From: Selaginella moellendorffii
Lineage: Eukaryota > Plantae > Lycopodiophyta
Assembly (NCBI RefSeq): GCF_000143415.4
Contig: NW_003314312.1
Coordinates: 501,261 to 565,260, forward strand
DNA length: 64,000 bases
Reading direction: 5' to 3'
The translations under genes were made by a program, and so were the position numbers. Of this stretch, positions 9,762 through 55,915 are shown one piece after another. The notes below the pieces were generated by a model that saw nothing but the letters and a program-made list of their open reading frames with translations, did no database searches and was not told where the DNA came from. Every line of letters begins with the position of its first letter. Positions within the stretch are counted from its first letter, which is position 1.

Positions 9762-9861
9762 NNNNNNNNNNNNNNNNNNNNNNNNNNNNNNNNNNNNNNN
9801 NNNNNNNNNNNNNNNNNNNNNNNNNNNNNNNNNNNNNNNNNNNNNNNNNNNNNNNNNNNNN
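9762..9861. other. Assembly gap (100 N)
   Basis: Run of N. Confidence 1.
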
Positions 9862-16030: not shown

Positions 16031-19000
16031 NNNNNNNNNNNNNNNNNNNNNNNNNNNNNNNNNNNNNNNNNNNNNNNNNNNNNNNNNNNNNNNNNNNNNN
16101 NNNNNNNNNNNNNNNNNNNNNNNNNNNNNNNNNNNNNNNNNNNNNNNNNNNNNNNNNNNNNNNNNNNNNNNNNNNNNNNNNNNNNNNNTGTCCTTAGATT
16201 GTGAATTTGGACACGAGACGAACACCATTGTGTTCAGGCCGATCTCTATATTCCGTAGATATGCCAAATGAGAAAATCTGGACACTTTCCATAAATAGCA
16301 TTTGGGACCGAAATGAGACTAACACAAAGGGCATGATAGCGAGGGTGTTTGGCAGACACGGTAAGCTATCATCCAGCGATATTGAGGGACCAATCTCAAT
16401 ACGCAAGGGTTCTTGTCAAGCCAGTGCAAGACAGAGCAAAAGAGAACTAAAAAGCCGGGCCAAGTATGCTTGGCCAAATAGACACTTAGGAATTCCGTCC
16501 TTATGCTCATCCGGCCAAGTACAGATGCTAAGTCCAGTTTACTAACACTTGAACAAGAGGGGCCAATAAAGGGTCCAGCAATACCGACCTCCTACCATCG
16601 TGGCAGTAAGGTAAGAGTGTCCGTAAGGACTGGTCGACAGGTAACTTTCGATACCCGAAGTCACATTCGTGACACTCTCCCCCCCTTGGGGAAGATCGAC
16701 ATCCTCGTCGATGCATACTCCAATCTAGAATACCGCCAAGGAAACAACTCTAGAAAAAGTTCACGGTACTCACACTATGTGAGAAATGCACCAACTTAAA
16801 TGAGTTAGGAGGCAACCTCTTTGTCTAACGCGGATGCGCTACCAGCTCAGACACCTTCCGGCCGTCGCCGACAAGGAAATGACCAACACAGTTTGCCACC
16901 CTTGCTGCTCTGGGAGTCACCCAGCTTACAAAAGTGTGATATGCCCCTGCCGAAAGGAACATAGAGAGAGAAGCCAGAGGCCCCAACCCTCCTGAGCAAA
17001 GAAACCAAACCCGTCAGTAAGGTTTAGATAGACTACTGTAAACAGGCAGTTAGAGTTGTTTACACGGTCACGCCCTTTCAACGGAATAAGAAACATCGAC
17101 AGAGAGGTGGGTTATGTGACCAGTTGACAGTAGCTACCCCATGACTAGAGATTTCACCATGCACACGAAGTGCCGAAGCCAGTCTGCCTATACTGGCCCA
17201 AACGCAAAGATCAATGGATGGACAATATCAAAGTCAGAGACAATGATATCTGAGAAGCTTAATTACTAGTGATTATATCTTAGAGTAGAACACAAAAGTA
17301 TTCTAAGCAAGTTATCATCCGATAAACCAGTAGTATTGTAGATAGGAACCACCAAGACCATCATAATTTGGCAAACACAGGAATGACCATCCAACAAAAT
17401 TCAATAGCTAGTATATCATCAAGGAAACTTAATGATGAAACTTAACTACCGAAGATAGTAGACAGTAAGCCAACAACTTACTAGAGAGAACTCAAAGAAC
17501 ACAAAGTATCATTGACTAATAAGCATAATGCTCGCGAATGTATCACCCAAAGGAAATAACATCCAAATTTATCAAAACTAACTCGAGCAATAATCAACAG
17601 AAGAGAATGAATGTGGTAAGACCAACAAACACTCATTTCTGCCAACTATCACAAAAGCCAATTTGAATAGATCCCAGCCAACAATACTAAGGAACTCAAG
17701 TTGCCTAAGCAAGTGTCAGCAACATCCTACTGACGTCTCAAACCCAAGAGACCAATCCAGAGCAAACCACAAAGAACATGTGGTATTGCGAAAAGCCAAA
17801 AGCCATCAAAGAGAACAACTAACTATCATGAAAGATTGTCAATCAGCCCATCAATGTAGTGATGTATAATCATCGTTGAAGAAAGAATCTACCATCCCGA
17901 AGAATAGCAAATAATTCCAAACCAACAATAATCAAGCAAAACTTGTGATAAGAACAATCAATTACCCTAGATGATAGTCAATCATCACCAATGATTGCTA
18001 GATGCAAATACTAACTTCAACATTGAAGCTAGGAGCCAAAATGCCTTCCCCAACAACTTCTAACAAATGGAACAATGAGCATAAAAACTCAAAGAACCAA
18101 AAGCTCAAAGAAGCCTATAACTAAGTCTTTGTCTATAATGATCACAAGTTTTGCATGAATTAACTTCAATGCTAAAGAAGAAATCATGGTGTAACCCATG
18201 ACATCTTTCTCAACACATCCATAAGCCAAACTGCATAATGCCAAAGCTAATGAAGAGCATTTCTGTATCAATCCAAAAGCTAAACACAATGGAGCTATGC
18301 TCAACAAGTGATCACCAAACGATCCTCTATGAATCCATCTACAGCAAGACGTAACTCACCTCATAACAAGCACAAGGGGAATCATCAATGATCAATATAT
18401 TCCAATTCAAACCCAATAATGATTCAAACTTTCCAATATTGATCACTAACTCTTTCGCTTGTAGAGTTAGCATAGTCCACGACTGAATCACTTTTCAAGG
18501 ACAAGCTTAAAGCTCAACCTTTACTAAACAAACTCATCGAGAACACAACTAACTCAACTTGCCACTCAGTTCATTTGAACATCAACACAGTTGCTAACTA
18601 GCAAATGCATGAATGCCAACAACACAAAGCTAAAGCCAAATCATCAACACTTTTCATCAAGACTAATGAAACTCAATATCAATCCTAAGGAAAGACATTT
18701 CATTTCACTCAAGTCTCAATATCAACAATATCAATGACAAGGCATCACTTCAATGCCATCAACACCAGGACAAAGCTAGAAGAAAGCAAGAGTGAATCAC
18801 CACTCGGAGCTTTCCAACAACCAAGCTAACCAAAGTCGAAGATACTATACTTAGTATCCGAGACCAATCCTTTAGCAAAACTCAGTGACAGATAACACAT
18901 CATCAAGGAGTGAATCACCACATCCAAGACTCAATGAAATCCAACACTATAGACCAAACGTAACCAAATGATATCGACAAAGGAATTGACATGCCAACAT

Positions 19001-29205: not shown

Positions 29206-30708
29206 ATGGCGCGTCCTTGGGGAAAGGTCGGCGCCTGGGCGGACGATTCGGAAGCGGAAGCGGCAGCGGCAGCGGCGCCCACAGCGCCACCGCCAGCAGC
29301 GCCGTTGCCAGTGGAAGCGTTTCCATCGCTGGGGGAGGCCGCCGCCGCGAAATCCAGCAAGAAGAAGAAAGGTCAGACGCTTACTTTCGCGGAGTTCCAA
29401 TCAGGGAAGTATGTTCCCGGTGTTAAGCAGCGGAGCTCGGCATCGTCGGGGATCTTCACCGACAGCGATCGCCTCACGTCGGACGAGATGATGATGCTGC
29501 CGACGGGGCCCAAGGATCGATCGGACGAGGAGCCCTATGAGCAGGGCGGGCGATTGGGTGGCGGCTTCCGGGACTATGGCGGTTTCCGGGGCGACAGGGA
29601 TCGCGGGGACAGGGATAGAGGCGATAGAGGCGATAGGGAGCGCGATCAGCGTGGCTTTGGATTCGATAGAGAGCGCGAGGCCTCTCGCGCCGACGATAGC
29701 AGCGACTGGAGCTCCAACAAGCCTTCCAGAGGAGCTGGAGGAGGAGGTGGTGGGCGATTTGACGACGAGAATCGGCGGTACAGTGGCGATCGCTTTGGTG
29801 GCGATAGAGATCTTCCCTCCAAGGCGGATGAGGTTGATAATTGGGCTTCTGGGAAGAAATCGCTGCCTCCTCCCGAGAGGAGATCCGATGACATTGGTAG
29901 GAGGTCCGATGACTTTGGTAAAGGTGGTTTTGGGAAAGCTGACGCTGATGACAACTGGGGAGCTAACAAGAAGCCCGTGGTCTCGGACAAGTGGTCGTTT
30001 CGGAGGTCTGATGACTATGGCGGCCCCGACTCTGGCGACAAATGGAGCAGGAGGAGCAACGATGACTCTCCCGGCGATGATAAGTGGGGCGCTAGGAAAG
30101 CTGGCGATGAGGCCCCTCGCAGGCCACGGTTGAATCTAAGGCCCCGGACCCTCCCGCTGGAGAACTCGCCGCCTCCAGTGTCTGCTGATCAACAACATGG
30201 CAGTCGGCCATCCAGCAGTCACTCTAGTCGACCGGGGAGTCCTCCAGAAGTGGAAGCACCTCCAGTTGAGCCAAAGCCACGCCAGAAAGTGGACCCTTTT
30301 GGGAACGCAAAGCCGAGGGAGGTGTTGCTGGAGCAACGAGGACAGGACTGGCGGAAGATGGATATGGAGCTCGAGAGCAAAAGGTAAGTAGTCTTGTAAA
30401 GTTTCGTGTTCGTTCTTCCCCTGATGTTGTGTTATAGGCCCGACACTGACGAGGAGAAGAAGCTCAAGGAAGAGATCGTGTCCCTGAAAGAGCTAGCGGA
30501 TAGCACCGCCGACCCTGCCGTGAAGGAGCAACTAGCCGAGAAGGAACAGGAGCTCGAGCAGCTGGTCAAAGAGCTTCATTCGAAGGCACGGGTATCGTCG
30601 GATCGTTGGAGGAAGGACGAGTCGAGAATCACTAGCCCTCCCGCTACAAGGCGCGATCCATGGAAGCGGGAGAATGGAAGGGATCGGCCAAAGGTTGATC
30701 GATGGTGA
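29206..30708 (+). CDS. eIF4B: Plant-type translation initiation factor 4B (exons 29206-30383 and 30438-30708)
   Basis: MARPWGKVGAWA, FPSLGEA, KKKKGQTLTFAEF, MMLPTGPKDR, SKADEVDNW, RPRLNLRPR, PFGNAKPREVLL, RPDTDEEKKLKEEI. Confidence 0.93.
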
Positions 30709-32245: not shown

Positions 32246-35167
32246 ATGGAATCATCCCATTCACTCAATAGCTACAGCCTCCTTATCTCCTCCTTGCTCT
32301 TGGCACTCTTCTTTTCATGCATTGCAACTCAATGTTCAGATGATCCAAAGGTGTACATTGTGTACATGGGTGCTGCTGATGAGCATCACAGCCACTTGCT
32401 GTCTAGCCACCACGCACAAATGCTGGCATCTGTTTCCAACAGGTGAAATCAGTCACCGAATGCCCAGCATATAAAATATATATAGATTCTATAGCTGTTT
32501 GTGTTCTAATTATTATTTGCTTTTTTGTATTGTGCTGTGGCAGGAGTGTGGAATCAGCTATGGAAACTATTGTCCACAGCTACACCCGAGCCATCAATGG
32601 CTTTGCTGCAAAGATGCTCCCCAGCCAAGCATCTATGCTACAACGTAAATTCCACCTCTTTCTCTGCTGTTTCATAACACATACAGACACTGAAATTTCA
32701 CATTTCATATGGTTTTCTCCATGAACTATATAGAGATGCCGGGCGTGGTTTCCGTGTTTGAGGACTACACAGTGTCCCTCCAGACAACCCGTTCTATAAA
32801 CTTCATAGGGCTGGAGGACGCATCCGGAAACACCGCAGCAAACTCGCTATGGAAGAAAACAATGGGCGAAAACATGATAATTGGCGTACTGGACTCGGGT
32901 ATATGCCAATCCCCGATTCGAATCTTTCTTTAAATCTCCCGCATTTTCTTCTAGGTGTCTGGCCAGAGTCGGCGAGCTTCAGCGACGCCGGGCTGCCGGC
33001 TTCCCTTCCTGCGAAGTGGCACGGCAGCTGTGCGTCGAGCGCCTCCTTCACATGCAACAGGTAACGCGGATTAGATCTCTCGATCGATCGTTTCATCGAT
33101 TGCTTCTTTTGTATTGCTGCTGGAGATTTCGCTGATGGCGCTTGCAGGAAAGTAATTGGCGCGCGGTACTATGGCTCTTCCGGCGGCAGCCCCCTGAATC
33201 CTCGCGATGTAACTGGGCATGGATCTCATGTCTCCTCCATAGCAGCGGGAGCTCGTGTGGCCGGCGTTGACGACTTAGGGCTCGCCAGAGGCACCGCAAA
33301 GGGCGTCGCGCCCCAGGCTCGAATTGCCGTGTACAAGATCTGCTGGGCGGTGAAGTGCGCGGGAGCCGATGTTCTCAAGGGCTGGGACGATGCGATTGGC
33401 GATGGCGTGGACGTGATCAATTACTCGGTGGGAAGCTCAAACAGTCCCTACTGGTCAGACGTTGCCTCCATCGGTAGCTTCCATGCCGTGCAGACAGGGG
33501 TCGTGGTGGTCGCAGCTGCTGCAAATGGTGGCATCGGTTGTGTTGTACACAACACTGCGCCGTGGGTGACGACGGTCGCTGCGAGCACGATCGATCGACG
33601 CTTCCCGAGTAACGTCGTCCTGGGAGATGGTTCAGTATACCAAGTAAGTTCTCTCCGCGAATTTTTCTTTCTTTTGCTCACTTCTTGTTCAGGGATCAAG
33701 CATCAACAATTTTAGTCTCGGCAATAGTTTCTATCCTCTGGTGAATGGAAGGGACATCCCTGCGCCCACGACATCACCCGAAAGGCAAGCTTGTATTGTT
33801 ACTCTTTCTTGCTTGACTAGTTTTTCTCTTTCTCTCGTTGTGCAGTGCTATGGGCTGCTCGCCTGGAGCTCTTGATCCTGCCAAAGCCCAGGGAAAGATA
33901 GTTCTTTGCGGCCCTCCATCCGTGGATTTCAAAGATGTCGCTGATGGATTGAAGGCTATTGGTGCGGTTGGGTTTATTATGGGAAACGATGCAAATGGCA
34001 AGGAGAGATTGCTGTCACTCAGATTCACGATGCCTGCTACTCAAGTTGGAAACACAGCTGCAAATTCTATTTCTTCCTACATCAAGTCAAGCGGGTAAAT
34101 AAGTTTTGCTTTGAAAATTCGATTACTCGATCACGAGGTCTCTTGTAGGAATCCAACCGCAAAGATTATACCGCCAACAACAGTGATTAATCAGAAGCCA
34201 TCGCCCATGATGGGAATCTTCTCTTGTAAAGGTCCCAACCCTGTTGTCTCAGACATTCTCAAGGTCTGTGCCATGCAGATTGTATATGTTCAGTGATTAA
34301 CGGTGTTTGTGCGAGTGGAAAAACAGCCAGACGTAACAGCACCAGGCGTGGACATCCTTGCCGCATGGTCAGAAGCAGCTGATAAGCCACCTCTCAAGTA
34401 TAAGTTCGACAGTGGAACATCAATGGCCAGTCCCCATGTTGCAGGCTTAAGCACACTTCTCAAATCCTTGAACCCTGATTGGAGTCCAGCAGCGATCAAG
34501 TCTGCGATCATGACCACAGGTATCTTAAAAGCTGCCGAGAATTTTTAGCATTGTAAACTTACAGTTCTAATCCATCACCATAGCTTACACGCAAGACAAC
34601 ACCGGGACGACAATTCTCGACGGTGACTATGACGTTGCTGGTCCCTTCAACTATGGATCAGGACACATCAACCCGGTTGCAGCAGCGGATCCGGGGCTTG
34701 TTTACGATGTAGGAAAGCAGGACTACGTCGCTTTCTTGTGCAACATTGGCTTCTCGGCAAGACAGATCCAAGCTATGACTGGAGAACCTGGTAACTGTCC
34801 TGCCACCAGAGGCCGAGGCAGCGACTTAAACTACCCGTCAGTGACGCTCACCAATCTGGCAAGAGAGGCAGCAGTGACGAGAACTCTCACCAGTGTCAGC
34901 GATTCGCCAAGCACGTATAGCATTGGTATAACTCCACCGAGCGGGATCAGTGTTACTGCCAACCCAACGAGCTTGATGTTCAGCAAGAAGGGGGAGCAAA
35001 AGACGTTCACGCTCAACTTTGTTGTGAACTATGATTTCCTGCCTCAACAGTACGTGTATGGTGAGTATGTGTGGTATGACAACACGCACACTGTTCGCAG
35101 CCCGATTGTGGTCAATGCGGTGAGTCGCCTTGCAATCGGGGAAGAGAAATTGGTTTCTGAGATTTAA
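32246..35167 (+). CDS. Subtilisin-like serine protease (S8A) with signal peptide, I9 prodomain, PA domain and C-terminal Fn3-like domain
   Basis: [34 protein letters not shown] (D), TGHGSHV (H), [12 protein letters not shown] (S), LNYPS, VRSPIVV. An alternative short last exon after 35118 is possible. Confidence 0.95.
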
Positions 35168-43710: not shown

Positions 43711-46587
43711 TGTAAAGAACCAACACTTTGAGGTGTTGTAAGTTAAAGGATCCCCGAAAGCACAATTGAAATAATAAAGAGTTTATCAGATGAGATCGAG
43801 TCTGAAATCGAGTCTGAAATCGAGTCTGAGACCGACTCTGAGACTAAGTTCAAGACCGAGTCTGAGATCGAGTTTGAAATCGACTCTGAGACCAAGTTCG
43901 TGACTGAGTCCAAGACCGAGTTCAAGACCAAGATTGGGTTCAGGAACTAGTTTTGAAGGAACTCTCCAATGGTGCTTCCAAATGGACATGAGGTTGAGAC
44001 TGGGGCTTAGGGGCCTTGGGTGGGAGTGAGTATGGACTTAGGTGGTGCCAGAGGGGCCACCCAAGGTAGTGCTTAAAAGCAACTCCCACTCTTGGAAGGG
44101 AAATTGACTGTAATGCTCTCAACTCATGTGGAGTGGTGCTTTATTTGAGTACCTTGCGACTCATTAACTCTCACCCTTCCTAAGGGCTTGGGCCTTCCCT
44201 TCGGGATGGAAGTGGGGGCATAAAGGTATTTATATTGGGCTGTTAGGTCATAGTGTTTCCTTCTAGTGTCTTGAAGCAAGGGTTGCACCCAAGGCTTGGG
44301 ATTTAAAGGGTCCCATGAATAAATCTTGTTGTACCAAGAGATGTTAGAAATATAGAGGCTTGGTGTGCTTGGCTGCTTGTGCCTGCGGGGAGTGTAGCTA
44401 AACCTTAAGTCCAGTCTAACTCGGGATGGGGGATTGAGAGAGAACTTCGGAATCTATGGATGGATGGCTAACACTCTGTTACTTGTGTAGTGAGTTGCTG
44501 AAACCATGTAGGAGCTGGTACAATAAGCGGGAACCTTGGCAAGGGAACTTGACTAATGCCAAGGACATGGTGGTCGGATAGACAAGGTAAGCTAGCAAAT
44601 TGGAAATAAAAAATTTGTGGCTTACAATTTGGTATCAAAGCTTTTTCTTTAGTTCTAGCAAAGGATAGAGGCAGATTGCTGGGAGATGGCTAAAGCAAGG
44701 CATAAGAGAACCAAAGCGGAGATGGAACCTCCTCCGGAGCCAGAACCTCCTCCAGAGCCAGAACCTTTAGTCGAACAAAAAGCTATGGATGAGGAATCCT
44801 TACATGAGAAAGACTTCAGTGATGAAACTTTTAAACAAAAGTCTAGTGGTGAAATTTGGTTAATTGGACATTCTAAAAGGACAATTGGCACAAACCAATG
44901 CCTTATTGGAGGCCCTCATATGCAAGCTAAAGTGTGATGAGAAGTAGAAGAAAAAGCAAAATACTACAGATGCTAGCAGCACAGAAGGCGTGGACTGAGG
45001 TGGAACCAAACAAGATCGAACAAACTGAAGTGGAATTAGTCCCTTAATCAGTTCCCAAGTACAAACTAAAACCCCACCAATCTTTAAGGGAGTGAATGAT
45101 TATAAGGTGGTGGAAGATTGGGTTTACGATATAGAAGATTATTTTTGAGTGTTGCGATTAACGAGCTTGAAGAAGGTCCCATGTGCTAAACTATATTTGG
45201 CAGATAATGCTAAGTCTTGGTGAAGAACAATAGAGGCCAACGAAGGACCAATGGCCACTTGGGAAATGATGAAAGCGAGGATCTGCACAATTTATGTTCC
45301 TCCAAATGCTACTTTACACCTAAGGGATGAGCTGAGTAGGCTGAAGCAGACAGGAACCATTCAAGAGTATGTGAATGTGTTCATGGCAAAGAGGATGCTT
45401 GTCACAGACATGAGTGATATGGATGCGTTCTATGCCTTCATATCAAACTTGCAAACTTAGGCTCGATGCATTGGAACCCAACCAATTATAAAGAAGCATT
45501 GGATGTAGTTATCAAGGTGCATTTTAATGATAACCTACAAAAAAGGAACATAACGAGGTTGGGGTCCACATTTAGCAAAGGAGACAAACTAGATATATGG
45601 CAAAGGGAAATTCAAAAAGATTTTCTCTAAGAATGAGTCCTCAAGGTTTCTAAAAGGCAAATCTAGTGGCCAGTGAGCAAATACGTGGGAGAGTCAAGCG
45701 AAAAATGACAAATCCACTAATAAAAAAGTCAAGTCTACTAATAGCGTGGGAAACAATATATGCTTCAATTGCGGTGAAACAAGACACTTTTCGAGGGAAT
45801 GTCCCTTCCTGAAGAAGGCCAGAGTCAATATGGCCATTAAGTCAGGTGAAATTCAAACTAAAGTACGTGATCCAGTCCCTAGCTCAAAGTTACTCATTAC
45901 ACGAGCAAATTTGGTAGAGAGTCATTTGCGACATCTACTAGCCCTTTGAGAAAAGCTCAAAAGTAGCTTTGTTAAGATCCTTATTGATACAGGTGCTTCG
46001 GATAATTTTGTGGCTACAGATATAGTCTGGCAAGCCGGACTAATAATGTAGTGGCTGAGTGAACCAAGGACTATAGAGTTTGTTCAAGATAGCCAAAGCA
46101 CCAATGAGGCGAAGTAAGGACGTAGAAAGTAGACATGGATTTTACCGTGTTCGACATGGTGGATTTGACATGATCTTTGGGTTGGATTGGTTTGGTAACC
46201 CTGCATAAATAAGGTAGGAACCTTATGGTAATGGCAAATGCCTGAGGAGAATGATCTAGAATGGAGGCCCAGGATCTAAAAGTAGGGCAAAGTAAGGCAA
46301 AAGACTTTTGCTTAAATTTGGTGTTCACGAGAGGACAACTCACTAAAGGAACCAACATAGCGTTTTTGTGTTTAATTTTAGTGGGGAGTGACAAAAAGAC
46401 AGGAACGAAAAAAGCACCTTTAGTGATCCAACGGGTGTTAGACCAATTTTGAGATACCATGCTAGAGGAGTTATCAACAGTGTTACCCCCTGCACGACTG
46501 ATAGACATAAAATCAAGCTAATTAAGGGTGCTAAAGCGGTGGTTCGTCCCCCCTATCGGTTGAACAAAAAGGAACTCGAGGAGTTGA
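43711..46587 (+). mobile_element. Older truncated family D copy: 5' LTR (43711-44626), PBS, gag, protease, start of RT
   Basis: Colinear with 47640-50830; PBS TGGTATCAAAGC at 44630; CFNCGETRHFSREC; LIDTGAS; many stops and frameshifts. Confidence 0.9.
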
Positions 46588-46589
46588 TA

Positions 46590-47634
46590 TAGTGCTAGTA
46601 AACTGACATGAAATACATCATGTACATGGGACAACTCATTTGGAAGGAGATGATTTATAGGATACATCACCAACTCATCTCAACACCCAATAAGATCCAA
46701 CATCTCTTGGTAACAGCTTCTGAGACAAAGATCCCTTAATATTCAAATTCTAGGAAGATAGCCACACTTGATCTCCCACTTGATAGAATATATTCCGACG
46801 ATGCTGATCCTTATCATGTCGATAGCTATCTTGAGCTTTGCCCATCGCCTCAGTAGCTCTAGACCAACCTTGGCGTAGTTGCTCTACTTAAGTCTCAACG
46901 GCTGGGACCAACACTTCGGACATTAGCTTTGGTACAACAATCTGTTGAGGATCCCTATGAGCATTCCCTTATAGCATCTCCTATGGAGAACAGCTAATAG
47001 TGCTATGAAATGTGTTGTTATAACATATTTCTGTTGTGTCTAAATGCTCAACTCAGTCACGTTGGTCTGCCGCGACATAGTACCACAAATAATCCTCCAC
47101 TTGAGCATTCACGTGTTCAGTCTACCCATTGGTTTAAGAATGATAAGCTGTACTAAACTTCAACTTGGTACCAAACAACTAAAGCAGTATGCCCATAAAC
47201 CTTTATCTAAGAGTTGCCTCAACTTCTTTCTTCCTTTTCTTGTTCTTCTTTTTCAATTTGCGAACTTCCCTTTGCAAATTCTTGATCTCAACTTCCTGAG
47301 CTGTATGTTGCAGTGCTATAGCATCTAGCTCTTCCTCTTCTAACTCGGCCTCAACCTCTTCCATAACATCTCTTGCATGAGTTTCCTCCTCTTGATTCGC
47401 TCGTCTAAAGGTTTCAGCATCATCAGCACAGTTCCTTTTCACCATCTCACTAGCTACATGCATGCCTCTATCAGTAACTAAACATGCATACAACATCTTA
47501 CCAAATGGTGCAATCCCACTAATCCTACACAGGTCACTCAGGATCTACTAGAAGAGTCTCTGCGTATGCAACTTGAGTCAGAAAATCTGACAAAAGTTGG
47601 ATAGGAATCGTTGAGACAATTCCTCTGATACCAA
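46590..47634 (-). mobile_element. Internally deleted family B element: PBS, gag N-terminus joined to the integrase C-terminal half; its 5' LTR is at 55187-55915
   Basis: PBS 47622-47633; coiled-coil ORF 47496-47203; then GTKLKFSTAYHS*TNG*TEHVNAQVEDYL and SQKLLPRDVGSY. Confidence 0.75.
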
Positions 47635-50600
47635 ATGTATGTAAAGAACCAACTCGCCGAGGCTAAAGGAACCCCAAAAGCATGACCAAAATGACAAAGA
47701 GTTCATCGGATGGGACCAAGTCGAAGATCGAGTCCAAGACTGACTCTAGGACCGAGTTCGAGATAGAGTCCGAAATCGAGTCCGAGACCGACTCGGGGAC
47801 CGAGTTCGAGTCTGAGTTCGAGACCGAGTTCGAGACGGAGTCCGAGATCCGAAATTGCATCCGAGACCGAGTCCGAGGTCGAGTCTGAGGTCGGGTCCTA
47901 GATTGGGTCCGAGATCGAGTCCGAGATCGAGTCCGAGACCGAATCCGAAGTCGGATCCGAAATCAGGTCCGAGATAGAGCCAGAGACTAAGTCCAAATAC
48001 TAATACGGGTCAAGGGGTGAAAGCCCAAAGCGTGCGTCTCCCAGGGGGGGGGGGGCTGCAGGGGGTTCCAAAAGTATAGTAGGGATAGTGAGGTCCAGGA
48101 ATTAGTCTTGAAGGAACTCTCCAGTGGTGCTTCCAAACTGACTTGAGGTTGAGACTGGGGCCGAGGGGCCTTAGGTGGGAGTGAGCATGGGCTTGAGTGG
48201 TGCCGGAGGGGCCACCCAGGGAAGTGCTCAAGAGCAGCTCCCACTCCCGAAAGGGAAACCGACTGCGGTGCTCCCGGCTCATGTGGAGTGGTGCCCCACT
48301 TGAGTACCTTGTGGCTCATTGGTCCTCGCCCTCCCTAGGGGCTTGGGCCTTCCCTTCGGGATGGAAGTGGGGGGGTAGAGGTACCCATACCGGGCTGTTA
48401 GGCCACGGTGTTTCGCCCCGACGTCCCGAAGCAAGTGCTGCACCCAAGACTTGGGATTTAGAGGGTCCCATGATCAAGTCTTGTGGTACCAAGGGGTGTT
48501 AGGAATCTGGAGGCTTGGTGTGCTTGGCTGCTTGTGCCTGCGGGGAGTGTAGCCGAACCTTAAGTCCAGTCTAACCCGGGGAGGGGGATTGGGAGAGATT
48601 TGGGAATCCGTAGATGGATGGCTAACACTCCGTTGCTCGTGCAGTGAGTAACTGAAACAAAGTAGGACCAAGTAGGAGATGGTACTATAGGTGAGAACTT
48701 TGGCGAGGGAACTTAACACAAGCCAAGGCAGAGTTGGTCGGATAGACGAGGTAAGCTGGCAAATTGGAAAGGAAAAATTTGTGGCTTACAATTTGGTATC
48801 GGAGCCTCTTCCTCAGTTTTAGCGAAGGATAGAGGCAGATTGCTGGGAGATGGCAAGGGCAGGACGTAAGCGAACCCAGGCAGAGACGGAACCTCCTCCA
48901 GAGCTGGAGCCTCCGGTCGAATAGGAGGCTATGGATGAGGAATCCTTGCATGAGGAGGACTCCAGTGAGGCAACTTCCAAACAGGAGTCTGGTGGTGAGG
49001 TTCGGTCGTCCAAGGCTCAATTGGACGTTCTAGAAGGACAATTGGCACAGACTAATGCCCTGCTAGAGACTCTCGTACGCAAGCTAAAGCGTGATGAGAA
49101 GCGGAAGAAAAAGCGAAAGACTGCGGATATTGGCAGCGCAGAAGGTGCGGACCCTTCGGCAGGGACTGAGGCAAAACCAAACAAGGTCGAACAGACCGAA
49201 GTGGAATCAGTCCCTCAGGCAGTTCCCAAGTACAAACCAAAGCCCCCACCGGTCTTCAAGGGAGTGAATGACTATAAGGTGGTGGAGGATTGGTTTTACG
49301 ATATGGAAGACTACTTCCGAGTGTTGTGATTACCGAGCTCAGAGAAGGTCCCATGTGCAAAACCATACTTGGCAGATAATGCCAAGTCTTGGTGGAGAAC
49401 GACAGAGGCCAACGAAGGACCGGTGGCCACTTGGGAAATGATGAAGGCGAGGATCCGCGCAACTTACGTTCCTCCGAATGCTACTCTGCATCTAAGAGAC
49501 GAGCTGAGTAGGCTGAAGCAGACCGGAACCATTCAGGAGTATGTGAATGGTTTCATGGTAAAGAGGATACTTGTCATGGACATGGGGGATATGGATGCGT
49601 TCCATGCCTTCATATCAGGTTTGCAAACCTGGGCTCGCGGCGAAGTAATGCGGTGGAACCCGACCAACTACAAGGAAGCGTTGGATGCGGCCATCAAGGT
49701 GCATTTCAATGATAACCTACGAAAGGGGAACACGACGGGGTCGGGATCCACATTTAGCAAAGGGGCCAAACCAAGGGGAACGTTTAGCAGAGGGAAATTC
49801 AAGAAGAGTTTCTCTAAGAATGAGTCCTCGGGGTTCCGAAAAGGCAGATTTAGTGGCCAGCGAGCGAGTACGTGGGGGAGTCAAGCGAAAAGAGACAAAC
49901 CCACGGATAAGAAGGTCAAGTCATATAGCAGCGTGGGAAATAACGTATGCTACAACTGCGGTGAAGCGGGACACTTCTCGAGGGAATGTCCCTACCCGAA
50001 GAAGGCTAGAGCCAATATGGCCATCAAGTCGGGTGAAGTCCAAACTGAGGTATGTGATCCAGTCCCTAACTCAAAGTTACTCATCACACGAGCAACTTTG
50101 GTAGAGAGTCATTCGCGACATCTACTAGCCCTCCGAGGGAAGCTCAGAGGTAGCTTTGTTAAAATCCTTATTGACACGGGTGCTTCGGATAATTTTGTGG
50201 CTGCAGACATAGTCCGGCAAGCCGGACTAACGGTGCAGCGGCTAGGCGAACCAAGGACTATAGAGTTTGTTCAAGGTAGCCAAAGCACCGATGAGGTACT
50301 TCGACAAGCGAGAGTCGAAGTGGGGACTTGGAAGGTGGACCTGGATTTCACCGTGTTGGACATGGCAGGATTTGACGTGATCTTCGGAATGGACTGGTTC
50401 AATCAATTTGTGGTAGCCCTGCATGGACAAGGTAGAAACCTTGTGGTACTGACGAATGCCCAAGGAAGAAGATCTAGGGTGGAGGCCCAAGATCTAAAGG
50501 TAGGGCAAAGCAAGGCCAAAGATTCCTGCTTAAACTTGGTGTCCACGAGAGGACAACTCATTAAAGGAACTAAGGCAGCATTTTTGTGCTTACTCTCGGT

Positions 50601-52723
50601 GAAGAGTGACAAAAAGACAGGAATGGAAGAAGTACCTTTAGTGATCCAGCGGGTGTTAAACCAATTCCAGGATACCATGCCGGAGGAGCTACCGGCGGGG
50701 CTACCCCCAGCACGACCGATAGAACATAAGATTGAGCTGGTCGAGGGTGCTGAGGCGGTGGTTCGTCCCCCTTATCGTTTGAACGAAAAAGAACTCAAGG
50801 AGCTCAAGTGCCAACTAGAGGAGTTGGTGGACAAAAGGTATGTTAGGTTGAGCAAGTCGCCATATGGGGCACCGGTGTTATTTGTGAAAAAGAAAGATGG
50901 GTCTATGCGCATGTGCATAGACTACCGGTTGCTCAACAAGTATACAAAGAAGAACAAGTACCCTTTGCCAAGGATTGAGGACCTATTCAATAGGTTGGGA
51001 AAGGAAAAATACTTCTCGAGGATTGACCTAAGGTCAGGATACTACCAGATTAGGGTAGCCGAGGAAGATGTCGAGAAGACAACCTGTCGAACAAGGTATG
51101 GGAGCTTTGAGTTTCTGGTGATGCCCTTTGGGCTGTGTAACGCACCGGCAACGTTTTCGGTGCTAATGAACCACATCTTTGTACCCTATTTAGATCACTT
51201 CGTGGTCGTCTATATCGACGACATCCTGATCTATAGCGAGATGCTAGAGGAGCATGCCGAACACTTGGCGAAGGTGTTTGAGAAACTAAGGGAACACAAA
51301 CTGTATGCTAAAGAGAGCAAATGTGACTTTGCTCAACATGAGGTAAAGTTTCTCGGGCATGTGGTGGGCCAGGACGGGCTCAAGGTGGACCCGAAGAAGG
51401 TTCAAGCGATCCAGGAATGGGAGCGACCATCGAATGTACACAAGTTGAGGGCATTCCTGGGGCTATGCAACTACTATCGAAAGTTTATCAGACACTATTC
51501 GAGAGTAGCCCTACCCTTAACGGACCAAACAGGAAAAGGGAAGATGGTGTGGACAGCGGAATGCGAGGCGGCATTCGTCCACCTTAAAGGGAAGTTGAGG
51601 AAGGCTCTCGTATTGGCATTACCAGACTTTGGTAAGGACTTTGAGGTAGAAACGGATGCTTCGGACTTTGCGTTGGGTGCAGGTTTGAAGCAAGACAACC
51701 ATCCGGTAGCATTCTTTTCGAAGAAGTTGGACAAGGCTCAACGGAAGTGGCCTGCCCACGAGAAGGAATTGTTTGCGGTGGTCAAGGCGCTCAAGGAGTG
51801 GTGACACTACCTTGGGAGACACTTCAAGGTTTACACGGACAATGTGGCAACGAAACACTTCTTGTCACAGCCCGACCTGAGAGGGAAACAAGGTCGGTGG
51901 GCCAATGCCTTGGCTGAGTTTGATTGCGAGATTCTGTACAAGCCTGGGAAGAGCAACATCGTGGCGGATGCGCTAAGTCGAAAAGCGAGCTTGAGGTTGG
52001 CAATATCCAGCGCAACAGCAACCTTCTGGGATGATGTGCGGACAGCATATGAGAACAATGGTCTAGCACAAGAAGTGTTGCTGAGGAATCTAGAGGCGCG
52101 GGAAGCTCACCAGAGAGGTGAGCTGCCAACGGAAGAGAAAACGGGCTATGCGGAACGCAACGGACTCATCTATTACAAGCAAACGAGGGTGTATGTTCCA
52201 GAAGGGGAACTAAGGAAGGTGGCCTTAGAAGAGTGTCATGGCGGACCTCTTGCGGGACATGGCGGAGTGCCCAAGACGATGGGCTTACTCAAGAGGAAGT
52301 ACCATTGGCCAGATATGGCTAAGGACGTCCAAGACTATGTAAAGACATGTCCAACATGTCAGCAGGTAAAAGCCGTGACTAAGGCTGGTGGGGGCTTGTT
52401 GCAAAGCATCCCAATTCCAGATCGTCCGTGGAAATGTCTTACGATGGACTTCATTACGGGACTCCCCCCAAGTGAGGGGTTTGATGCGATATTCGTGGTG
52501 GTGGACCGATTTTCGAAAATGGCACATTTCATACCCACCACAACAGAGGTGGATGCGGAAAGTGTGGCAAAGCTATTCTTCGAACAAGTGGTTCGAGTGC
52601 GGGGAAGACCGGAAGAGATCATCTCAGATCGAGATAAGATCTTCACCAGTAGGTTCTGGAGGACTCTCCTGGAACAGTATTGCACCAAGTTGAAATTCAG
52701 CACAGCCTATCACCCACAGACAG

Positions 52724-52769
52724 GTATGGGGTATTAAGTCAAGTTGTTGGCACTAACACTTCTTGACAG
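52724..52769 (+). other. Putative spliceosomal intron 1 in the integrase core (46 nt)
   Basis: AG|GTATGG...CACTAAC..TTCTTGACAG|AC. Removal restores HPQT-D-GQTERVN and the reading frame. Confidence 0.88.
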
Positions 52770-53187
52770 ACGGACAGACGGAAAGGGTGAATAGGCAGCT
52801 GGAGGATTATTTGTGATGCTATGTCTCGGGAGACCAGACCGATTGGGTAAGTCATTTGGGACTTGTGGAAATGTGTTATAACAACTCACCACATTCGAGT
52901 ATCGGGGTGAGTCCATGGGAAGTCATCAATGGGCGAGCTATTGAAGGTCCTGTGGAACTCGGCGTGGCTGAGTATCATGGAGAGTTGCCCGCAGTGGAGG
53001 CATTCACGGCGGAAAGACTCAGCATTTGGAATCTAGTGAGGGATTCCTTGGAACGGGCTCAACAAAGGCAAACCAAATACGCGAACCAGAAGCGTCGGGA
53101 TGTAGAGTTCCAAGCTGGGGAGAAGGTGTGGCTGAACACCAAGAACCTCAGACTACCAAGTGGGATCAGCCGAAAGTTGACCCAAAG

Positions 53188-53239
53188 GTAAAGATGCATG
53201 TATTCCTGTAAATGAATTGATCTTGAGTTCCTTAAGCAG
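53188..53239 (+). other. Putative spliceosomal intron 2 in integrase, just before the GPY/F motif (52 nt)
   Basis: AG|GTAAAG...TTCCTTAAGCAG|G. Removal restores KLTQ-R-FAGPY and the reading frame. Confidence 0.88.
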
Positions 53240-53709
53240 GTTCGCGGGGCCTTACGAGATTGAGGCACGAATCGGTAAAGTGGCTTACCGACTCTGACTT
53301 CCTCGAGAGATGGGGAAGATGCACCCAGTGTTCCACGTGAACTTACTCAAGCCGTACTTTGAGGATCCGCTTCGCAAGGACCAAGTGAGACCTTTACCTG
53401 AGGTTATCCAAGGGGAAGAGGAATACGAAGTCGAGGCCATCCTCAATGCGCGCAAGAGCAAGTGACAAGGACGCGAGGTGAGAGAGTTCCATGTGAAGTG
53501 GAAAGGATTTCCACACTGCGAAGCAACATGGGAACCGGAGGAGAACCTAGCGAACGCGCGAGATCTGGTGGAGGAATTTCTGCAAGGCAGAACTCTATGT
53601 ACTTATGCAAAGTTCAATTAAAAATATCAATTTGCAAAGTTGAGCAAGTGACATATGTTGGGACCCGAAGGCGCGCCGAAGGTAAGCTAATTAGCATGGG
53701 TTAGATAGG

Positions 53710-54005: not shown

Positions 54006-55186
54006 CTTCTATGGGTGGTGGAGTTGTAAGGAACCAACTCGCCGAGGTGTCATAGGCTAAAGGAACCCCAAAAGCATGACCAAAATGACAAAGAGTTCAT
54101 TGGATGGGACCAAGTCGAAGATTGAGTCCAAGACCGACTCTAGGACCGAGTTCGAGATAGAGTCCGAAATCAAGTCCGAGACCGACTCGGGGACCGAGTT
54201 CGAGTCCGAGTTCGAGACCGAGTTCGAGACGGAGTCCGAGATCCGAAATTGCATCCGAGACCAAGTCCGAGGTCGAGTCCGAGGTCGGGTCCGAGATTGG
54301 GTCCGAGATCGAGTCCGAGATCGAGTCCGAGACTGAATCCGAAGTCGGATCCGAAATCAGGTCCGAGATAGAGCCAGAGACTAAGTCCAAATACTAATAC
54401 AGGTCAAGGGGTGAAAGCCCAAAGCGTGCGTCTCCCAGGGGGGGGGGGGGCTGCAGGGGGTTCCAAAAGTATAGTAGGGATAGTGAGGTCCAGGAACCAG
54501 TCTTGAAGGAACTCTCCAGTGGTGCTTCCAAACTAACTTGAGGTTGAGACTGGGGCCGAGGGGCCTTAGGTGGGAGTGAGCATGGGCTTGAGTGGTGCTG
54601 GAGGGGCCACCCAGGGAAGTGCTCAAGAGCAACTCCCACTCCCGAAAGGGAAACCGACTGCGGTGCTCCCGGCTCATGTGGAGTGGTGCCCCACTTGAGT
54701 ACCTTGTGGCTCATTGGTCCTCGCCCTCCCTAGGGGCTTGGGCCTTCCCTTCGGGATGGAAGTGGGGGGGTAGAGGTACCCATACCGGGCCGTTAGGCCA
54801 CGGTGTTTCGCCCCGACGTCCCGAAGCAAGTGTTGCACCCAAGACTTGGGATTTAGAGGGTCCCATGATCAAGTCTTATGGTACCAAGGGGTGTTAGGAA
54901 TCTGGAGGCTTGGTGTGCTTGGCTGCTTGTGCCTGCGGGGAGTGTAGCCGAACCTTAAGTCCAGTCTAACCCGGGGAGGGGGATTGGGAGAGATTTGGGA
55001 ATCCGTAGATGGATGGCTAACACTCCATTGCTCGTGCAGTGAGTAACTGAAACCAAGTAGGACCAAGTAGGAGCTGGTACCATAGGTGAGAACCTTGGCG
55101 AGGGAACTTAGCACAAGCCAAGGCAGAGTTGGTCGGATAGACAAGGTAAGCTGGCAAATTGGAAAGGAAAAATTTGTGGCTTACAA

Positions 55187-55915
55187 TGTAGCACACGTGA
55201 ATTTGGAGCTGAACTTCAAGCCCGTTACACTATGAACCTAAGGTCTGATACAATCCCACAAGCACCAACTCCCCGTATCTAACACTTGCACGCAAAATGG
55301 TGTCAAACGGTGTTTGGCATGATTTTAGCCTAACGTGAGGAGGAGGGTACTCCACCAACTAGAGCAGCGTGGAGCTTGACCTTAGACCCAAGCCAAATGC
55401 AAAACAAGGAGCAACACAGTCTAGCAGAAGCCAAACTAATATCTCAAGTGGTCGGACATGCATTCTAACCACTATCCCTACTATACATTTGAAATCCCCC
55501 ACAGGACCCCCCCCCCCCCCCCCCCTCCTTCCCCAGTTCCCCCGCTCCCCCGCTCCCCTGCCCTTCTTTCAGGAACACATGCTTTGGGCTTTCACCCCAA
55601 GCCTCCCTTAGTACCAAGAGTTAATCTTTGGGACAAGCTCAAAACTTACTAGATATGGAATGTTCTTAAATTGCGAATTTGGACATGGGGCAAACACTAT
55701 TGAATTCAGGACAATCTTTATATTCCATAGATATGTCAAATGAGAAAATCTAGACACTTTCCATAAATAACATTTGGGACCGAAACGAGACTAACAATGA
55801 TAGTGAGGGTGTTTGGCAAACATGATAAGCTATCATTTGATGATATTGAGAGACTAATCTCAATATGTAAAGGTTCTTACCAAGTGAGTGTAAGACAGAG
55901 AAAAAACGAATTAAA
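55187..55915 (-). mobile_element. Family B 5' LTR (truncated), host of the element D insertion
   Basis: TGTAGCACACGTG...; homologous to 24410 onward; contiguous with the PBS at 47622-47633 once D is removed. Confidence 0.85.

Follow-up and report, generated by a model that had tools for sequence, protein, structure and literature searches.

Two short introns inside the integrase of a chromovirus family in Selaginella moellendorffii

How could a retrotransposon family, whose genes pass through RNA in every generation, keep introns inside its integrase? This question is raised by element D, a Ty3/gypsy chromovirus on the + strand of a 64,000-nucleotide stretch of the Selaginella moellendorffii genome (RefSeq assembly GCF_000143415.4, contig NW_003314312.1, positions 501,261 to 565,260; hereafter the window), the integrase of which is interrupted by two short insertions. 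An earlier note, made from the sequence alone, had read these insertions as spliceosomal introns and had proposed a splicing switch for integration. We found that both insertions behave as introns, which in probable-RNA contigs are removed singly or together from several copies of the family, and that, as far as contigs allow, they are kept family-wide in DNA copies down to approximately 82% identity. In this family, integrase is probably made only from spliced RNA and new copies only from unspliced RNA.

Two insertions that behave as introns

The insertions are located at 52724-52769 (46 nucleotides (nt), GTATGG...CTAAC...TTGACAG) and 53188-53239 (52 nt, GTAAAG...AAGCAG). Both are 3n+1 long and contain an in-frame TAA (at 52735 and 53189, respectively), and their removal leaves a single gag-pol frame with no other frameshift (3874, 418 and 382 nt, the sum of which is a multiple of three). 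Read unspliced, the frame ends with HPQTGMGY and a stop, four codons into intron 1 and ahead of the catalytic Glu. Both insertions have the features of U2-type introns, including GT-AG ends, a branch-point-like motif (CTAAC with its A at -14 in intron 1, TTGAT with its A at -20 in intron 2), AU-richness (41% and 35% GC versus approximately 50% in exons) and a host-like size: nine introns of the neighboring subtilase gene, delineated by eye, are 45-101 nt long and have 33-47% GC. The positions, ends, frame, stops and host-like size given in the earlier note were all reproduced. The subtilase gene itself (32247-35167, +) has one short intron with GC-AG ends, at 33785-33845.

Splicing was examined in 8 of 24 sequencing runs, of which three contig sets from three different studies (X15, X16 and X18), guessed to be RNA, were informative. 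A single 1083-nt contig in X16 (record 9) skipped both the 46 and the 52 nt. Records 10 and 11 of X18 skipped the 46 nt of intron 1 and the 52 nt of intron 2, respectively, and X15 record 2 skipped the 52 nt of intron 2, with GT..AG ends, while keeping intron 1. Among the probable-RNA records bridging each site, intron 1 was skipped in two of three and intron 2 in three of three, always exactly, and such junctions are present in probable-RNA contigs of all three studies. Skip-bearing records were 96-99% identical to D (mismatches at 42 of about 1030, 6 of 194, 23 of 734 and 10 of 748 letters) and differed from each other (e.g., at 52843, 52894, 52897, 53074, 53089 and 53104), suggesting that several copies are spliced and that none belongs to the 80%-identical sister family described below. 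X16 contained one family record and X18 three, compared with 6543 and 57 in the DNA-type runs X1 and X4; this scarcity supports, without proving, the RNA status of X16 and X18. The X15 record (59x), which covers the end of the integrase, is possibly a host transcript with an absorbed family fragment; its retained intron 1 carries a variant, but the codon affected remains a stop.

On the DNA side, 16 pieces were listed, with 6629 further pieces beyond them. Intron 1 was present in all three listed pieces that bridge it (X4 record 14 and X1 records 1 and 2, 82-83% identity), and X4 record 14 covered 52576-53266 without a gap. Intron 2 was bridged by one listed piece under a 31-letter rule (X4 record 15, 82%) and was whole in four more. 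Summed X1 depth across the introns was within the range of the flanks, and no exact intron skip occurred among the best 15 of 23 X1 joints (depth 50 and up). These 15 odd joints were considered as candidates for intron loss and rejected, as none matched the intron ends; several of them, together with loose ends, fell at GATC sites, as ligation junctions would. Only two indels were listed, both inside introns, and the best 40 of 105 rows contained no variant at the GT or AG dinucleotides, in agreement with conserved splice signals. The possibility that the insertions are specific to D was rejected: other DNA copies carry them, and the published consensus of the family (see below) is split and ends its open reading frame (ORF) at the same in-intron stop.

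The features of element D are as follows:

47635..47639, +, 5' target-site duplication (TSD), ATGTA
47640..48790, +, 5' LTR (long terminal repeat), 1151 bp, TG...CA, with a G12 tract at 48044-48055 and 12-bp-period repeats
48794..48806, +, primer-binding site (PBS), 13 nt, as described in PMC3350952
48850..52723, +, exon 1, coding for Gag (CCHC), protease (PR), reverse transcriptase (RT), RNase H (RH), and the integrase (INT) zinc finger and core with both catalytic Asp
52724..52769, +, intron 1, 46 nt, phase 1, GT-AG
52770..53187, +, exon 2, coding for the remaining part of the integrase core, which includes the catalytic Glu (52781), and for the start of the C-terminal barrel
53188..53239, +, intron 2, 52 nt, phase 2, GT-AG
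53240..53621, +, exon 3, coding for part of the Tf2-type GPY/SH3 module and the chromodomain, to the stop
53598..53640, +, AT-rich block at the stop codon, containing TGTA and AATTAA, 23% GC in 53600-53639; putative signal for an early 3' end
54013..54023, +, polypurine-tract (PPT)-like stretch preceding the 3' LTR
54025..55185, +, 3' LTR, 1161 bp, with a G13 tract at 54438-54450
55186..55190, +, 3' TSD, ATGTA

Exon 1 is a single frame, with the catalytic Asp codons at 52447 and 52627. The catalytic residues of integrase form a DDE triad, and the D-35-E spacing is satisfied only across insertion 1. Intron 1 separates the catalytic Glu, and intron 2 separates the SH3 end and the chromodomain. 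The end of exon 1 corresponds to Ty3 Gag-Pol residue 1267, from which exon 2 continues exactly in register, the second match being weak (E 0.022). Three unbroken chromoviruses in viral contigs have exactly one codon at the position of each insertion. Three other Gypsy integrases in the window, although decayed, are contiguous at both positions in translations inspected by eye, as had been reported for the first position. The exact skips in probable RNA and the one-codon equivalents in three unrelated chromoviruses are together more than chance.

The coding state of exon 2 was assessed with the 40 best-supported of 105 rows, in which places are not independent. Of the 16 variant places of exon 2, 12 were at third codon positions of the exon's own frame (P = 8e-4 versus 1/3; 4e-4 versus a methylation-context null). 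Third positions also accounted for 7 of the 8 exon 2 places that vary among copies and for 13 of 15 variant places of exon 1. Since methylation-prone sites are evenly spread over codon positions (31% third), methylation context does not explain this bias. Statistically, the reading frame of exon 2 is thus constrained at the coding level; the bias suggests that exon 2 was kept as protein and that the spliced product was used during the spread of the family.

D is full length in structure (7546 bp, LTR-LTR identity 97.7%) and has the features of a chromovirus, including the Gag-PR-RT-RH-INT order, a C-terminal chromodomain, LTRs, a PBS (with a putative match to initiator tRNA-Met), a PPT and, as had been noted, a 5-bp TSD (ATGTA) on both sides. 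It had also been called intact, a description that we had to abandon: the frame contains six premature stops, three in exon 1 (48922, 49327 and 51802), one in exon 2 (52814) and two in exon 3 (53295 and 53463), so that this copy itself is unable to encode the polyprotein. The three stops within the sampled stretch are minority forms, with another letter in 92-98% of X1 depth. Because D is a dead copy, the splicing argument applies to the family and not to the D locus.

The source of the insertions was considered as well, including an introner-type origin, in which a TSD would supply the splice site and similar insertions would recur at unrelated places in the genome. A 5-nt direct repeat, GACAG, is present at both junctions of intron 1 (52719-52723 and 52765-52769) and has the length of the family's own TSD; a 4-nt AGGT is present at both junctions of intron 2. 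Both repeats are short enough for chance. Intron 1 may possibly have originated as a repair or integration scar. No sequence similar to either insertion was detected elsewhere in the 64-kb window.

Several additional features of the locus were observed. The LTRs of D contain, besides the poly-G tract, a degenerate 12-bp-period repeat array (47648-47971 and 54042-54365). D with its TSD sits in, or at the end of, an LTR of an older Gypsy element in opposite orientation (46584-47634, -, and from 55191), and the decayed integrase of this older element (approximately 46584-47260) is unbroken at both intron positions. Assembly gaps (N runs) are located at 9762-9861 and 16031-16188 of the window.

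Family identity and relatives

The host is S. moellendorffii, to a protein of which an eIF4B ORF in the window (29209-30384) was 100% identical in a homology search. In this species, Novikov et al. (2012, PMC3350952) described SM1-Galahad, placed by them in the Galadriel/Galahad clade, as a family of hundreds of copies with a mean identity of 95% and no intact copy found. Its consensus is 7.5 kb long, with LTRs of >1 kb, TG...CA ends, a poly-G of 11-25 nt and a 13-nt PBS, and contains a 3,885-bp ORF (1,295 amino acids) without chromodomain, followed by two further ORFs, one of 316 bp and then one of 309 bp that contains the chromodomain. If its own stops are disregarded, D has ORFs of 3,885 nt (from the ATG to the stop in intron 1), 318 and 309 nt. 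D agrees with the SM1-Galahad description in host, length (7546 bp versus approximately 7.5 kb), LTRs (1151 and 1161 bp), poly-G (G12 and G13), ORF sizes and chromodomain. Thus, D most likely belongs to SM1-Galahad, a match based on the published description. Since the ORF sizes agree, the SM1 consensus is split at the same places, and its first ORF ends at the same in-intron stop as that of D.

In that paper the split is treated as three ORFs, whereas we read it as exons parted by introns. Its main text contains no instance of "intron" or "splic", and "intron" had no match in the text of its supplement, figures excepted. The earlier note had been unsure whether the arrangement was undescribed; the family and its split ORFs were published in 2012 as SM1-Galahad, and the intron reading is absent from that text. 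Some Selaginella chromoviruses are called unclassified elsewhere (PMC6317226).

The closest sister family, SM2-Galahad, has the same domain order and a 1,577-amino-acid polyprotein, compared with 1,557 codons over the three exons of D, and is likewise reported at hundreds of copies (PMC3350952). Unlike the split SM1, it has one unbroken ORF, and its LTRs are 919 bp long. A sister copy adjacent to D (43711-46583, +), with a 916-bp LTR and 80% DNA and 64-69% protein identity to D, breaks off in RT; it fits the published SM2-Galahad.

More distant relatives were searched in several ways. When metagenomes were scanned for integrase motifs preceding a splice donor, an intron was found in none of 8 loci, none of them close relatives; four (L001, L002, L006 and L008) were decayed fungal-like Gypsy integrases lacking exactly the one codon that follows HPQT and not introns, and the other four were chance matches. 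A scan of viral contigs revealed introns in none of 3 relatives (45-47% identity), which are all unbroken and not close. The unspliced-D-type ending was present in none of 304 relatives with an HPQT-type motif (384 were examined, 80 lacking the motif), again none of them close, and protein searches detected no close family member, the best segment identity being 56%. Because all other examined relatives are unbroken, sequence comparison appears to favor gain of the introns in SM1 over loss in SM2.

Proposed sorting of spliced and unspliced RNA

Unspliced RNA encodes Gag-PR-RT-RH and an integrase core cut before the catalytic Glu. In the reading that we consider probable, double splicing would yield a working integrase with its SH3 end and chromodomain, and removal of intron 1 alone would yield an integrase core without these two parts. 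In this element gag runs into pol in one frame, uninterrupted by a frameshift or a stop at the boundary, and the splicing requirement may lower integrase relative to Gag and RT. Spliced RNA would be barred from, or strongly disfavored in, packaging or reverse transcription, because its reverse transcription would erase the introns and autonomous intron-less copies would accumulate. The unspliced packaged genome and the switch, both proposed in the earlier note, are what we infer rather than what the contigs record.

A weak hint as to how the two RNAs might be sorted comes from contig ends, which lie at 53578 in X16 and at 53573 in X18, 20-25 nt upstream of the AT-rich block, where DNA continues. 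We tentatively suggest, at somewhat less than even confidence, that spliced RNA ends early in this block, at the stop and ahead of the PPT and 3' LTR; such RNA would lack both. The main alternative for sorting would be separate RNA pools as in barley BARE. Inspected by eye, the AT-rich block (53598-53640) might alternatively represent a third GT-AG intron, approximately 50 nt long.

Several points weigh against the proposed reading. The RNA status of the three informative runs is a guess, their contigs carry no strand, splice ratio, start or end, and no junction was found in three confirmed RNA-seq runs, which contained 11, 1 and 0 reads (12 in total). Upstream of 52690, the X15 contig runs into sequence absent from the window, and this transcript may be a host-fused fragment outside the life cycle of the element. 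The codon test used pre-selected, non-independent rows, and exon 3 provided only 4 rows, 2 of which represent stops of D itself. For an early 3' end there are two contigs ending 5 nt apart, and X15 ends elsewhere, at 53489. Rare intron-less DNA copies may exist, since contigs drop rare variants, and the packaging, cDNA and protein aspects of the mechanism are inferred.

The rival that survives best, although we regard it as unlikely, accepts the introns as real and considers them weakly spliced passengers: there would be no packaging bar, splicing would be rare where the element moves, and few intron-less copies would arise. Retention of intron 1 in X15, i.e., incomplete splicing, is consistent with this view, unlisted rows and contig filtering leave room for rare intron-less copies, and the unbroken SM2-Galahad (PMC3350952) could itself descend from such a loss. 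However, where probable-RNA records crossed a junction, it was spliced in 5 of 6 cases, which is hardly rare. In addition, full autonomy should allow an intron-less copy to spread. The best 15 of 23 X1 joints (depth 50 and up) included no exact skip, and the many-copy consensus is split (PMC3350952).

It is quite improbable that SM1 is integrase-defective and moved in trans by the SM2 integrase, with splicing an incidental host reaction to AU-rich insertions. Such dependence is known for BARE2 (PMC3735527), a sister-like copy (916-bp LTR, 80% nucleotide identity) adjoins D, and both families are reported at hundreds of copies. A defective integrase would not, however, account for the third-position bias of exon 2 in its own frame, for listed indels only within introns, for two insertions that are both removable without disturbing the frame, or for the minority status of D's three stops in the sampled stretch (92-98% of X1 depth differs).

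Still less probably, the contigs with skips would derive not from splicing of the element's own RNA but from a small number of DNA retrocopies without introns, or from host genes into which a piece of the element was absorbed. The guessed RNA status and the chimeric X15 contig would allow it, but the skips occurred in three different sequence variants, one of which lacks a single intron, and X16 and X18 are nearly free of other family contigs, contrary to DNA; moreover, intron-less retrocopies presuppose earlier splicing. Finally, the insertions are hardly credible as ribosomal frameshift or bypass signals read through unspliced: both are 3n+1 and shift the frame, but an in-frame stop lies within four codons of each, single-base indels are tolerated inside them, and the exact GT-AG removal largely refutes a frameshift signal.

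Within the preferred reading, in which integrase comes from spliced and new copies from unspliced RNA, a more elaborate version can be imagined that we consider doubtful. Here, splicing would act as an integrase rheostat with three products (a dead core, an active core without targeting tail, and a full chromodomain-guided integrase) and would be coupled to an early 3' end, so that integrase mRNA is never reverse transcribed. If true, the shGAG strategy of copia would have its mirror image here, and the family would be the first LTR element with a catalytic DDE triad split across exons.

Known systems and significance

Intron-dependent expression is known in other elements. In Ogre Ty3/gypsy elements of pea and Medicago, partial intron removal is needed for the downstream enzymes and genomic copies keep the intron (PMC6317226, PMC3735527, PMC12786077). 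Ogre logic acts between domains, whereas the D introns (46-52 nt, host-sized) lie inside the integrase and would gate only integrase and chromodomain. D is not an Ogre member, as Gag to integrase core is one frame; the two are alike in working only. BARE1 and EVD, which are copia elements, have a short optional intron in a single-ORF element, and their spliced RNA is not the replication template (PMC3735527, PMC5580714); BARE has separate RNA pools (PMC3735527), and in EVD splicing is coupled to early termination (PMC5580714). In these elements splicing destroys Pol and gives a Gag-only mRNA, whereas in the D family it would have the opposite outcome and complete an enzyme. D also differs from EVD/BARE-type Gag splicing in that splicing removes stops instead of creating one, and in its gypsy domain order, theirs being that of Ty1/copia.

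Two further systems are comparable in part. Foamy viruses make their enzymes from spliced RNA and use unspliced RNA as genome, but a single splice removes gag and leaves the pol coding region uninterrupted, whereas in D the integrase itself is interrupted (PMC7828637). Penelope-like elements keep introns through retrotransposition; however, they are not LTR elements, have no DDE integrase, and carry their introns mostly in the 5' untranslated region or N-terminal part (PMC8557442). No integrase-internal intron in LTR elements or in Galahad was found in the open full-text literature, a scope outside of which lie subscription journals, Repbase and two large REXdb supplements, and the accessible text of PMC12477816, PMC2864245 and bioRxiv 10.1101/2024.04.02.587720 contained nothing on integrase introns. 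By this comparison, the position of the introns inside the integrase and their target appear to be new, and the splicing-dependent enzyme logic is known from Ogre.

Retrotransposition is classically recognized by the loss of introns, yet the D family keeps two, and in the accessible text of a 2025 review (PMC12786077) only Ogre and EVADE are given as notable intron-bearing LTR elements of plants. A family of hundreds of copies with two host-sized integrase introns needs RNA to be sorted into message and genome, and its unbroken sister family, which shares this small genome, provides a natural control. Two questions thereby become testable: how an LTR element chooses the RNA to be copied, and how the balance of Gag and enzymes is set in single-ORF chromoviruses. 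The family would also provide an intron gain that is recent and datable, in a gene passing through RNA in every generation. ORF-based annotation scores such a family as lacking an intact copy, as was done in PMC3350952, and other families that appear broken may share this design.

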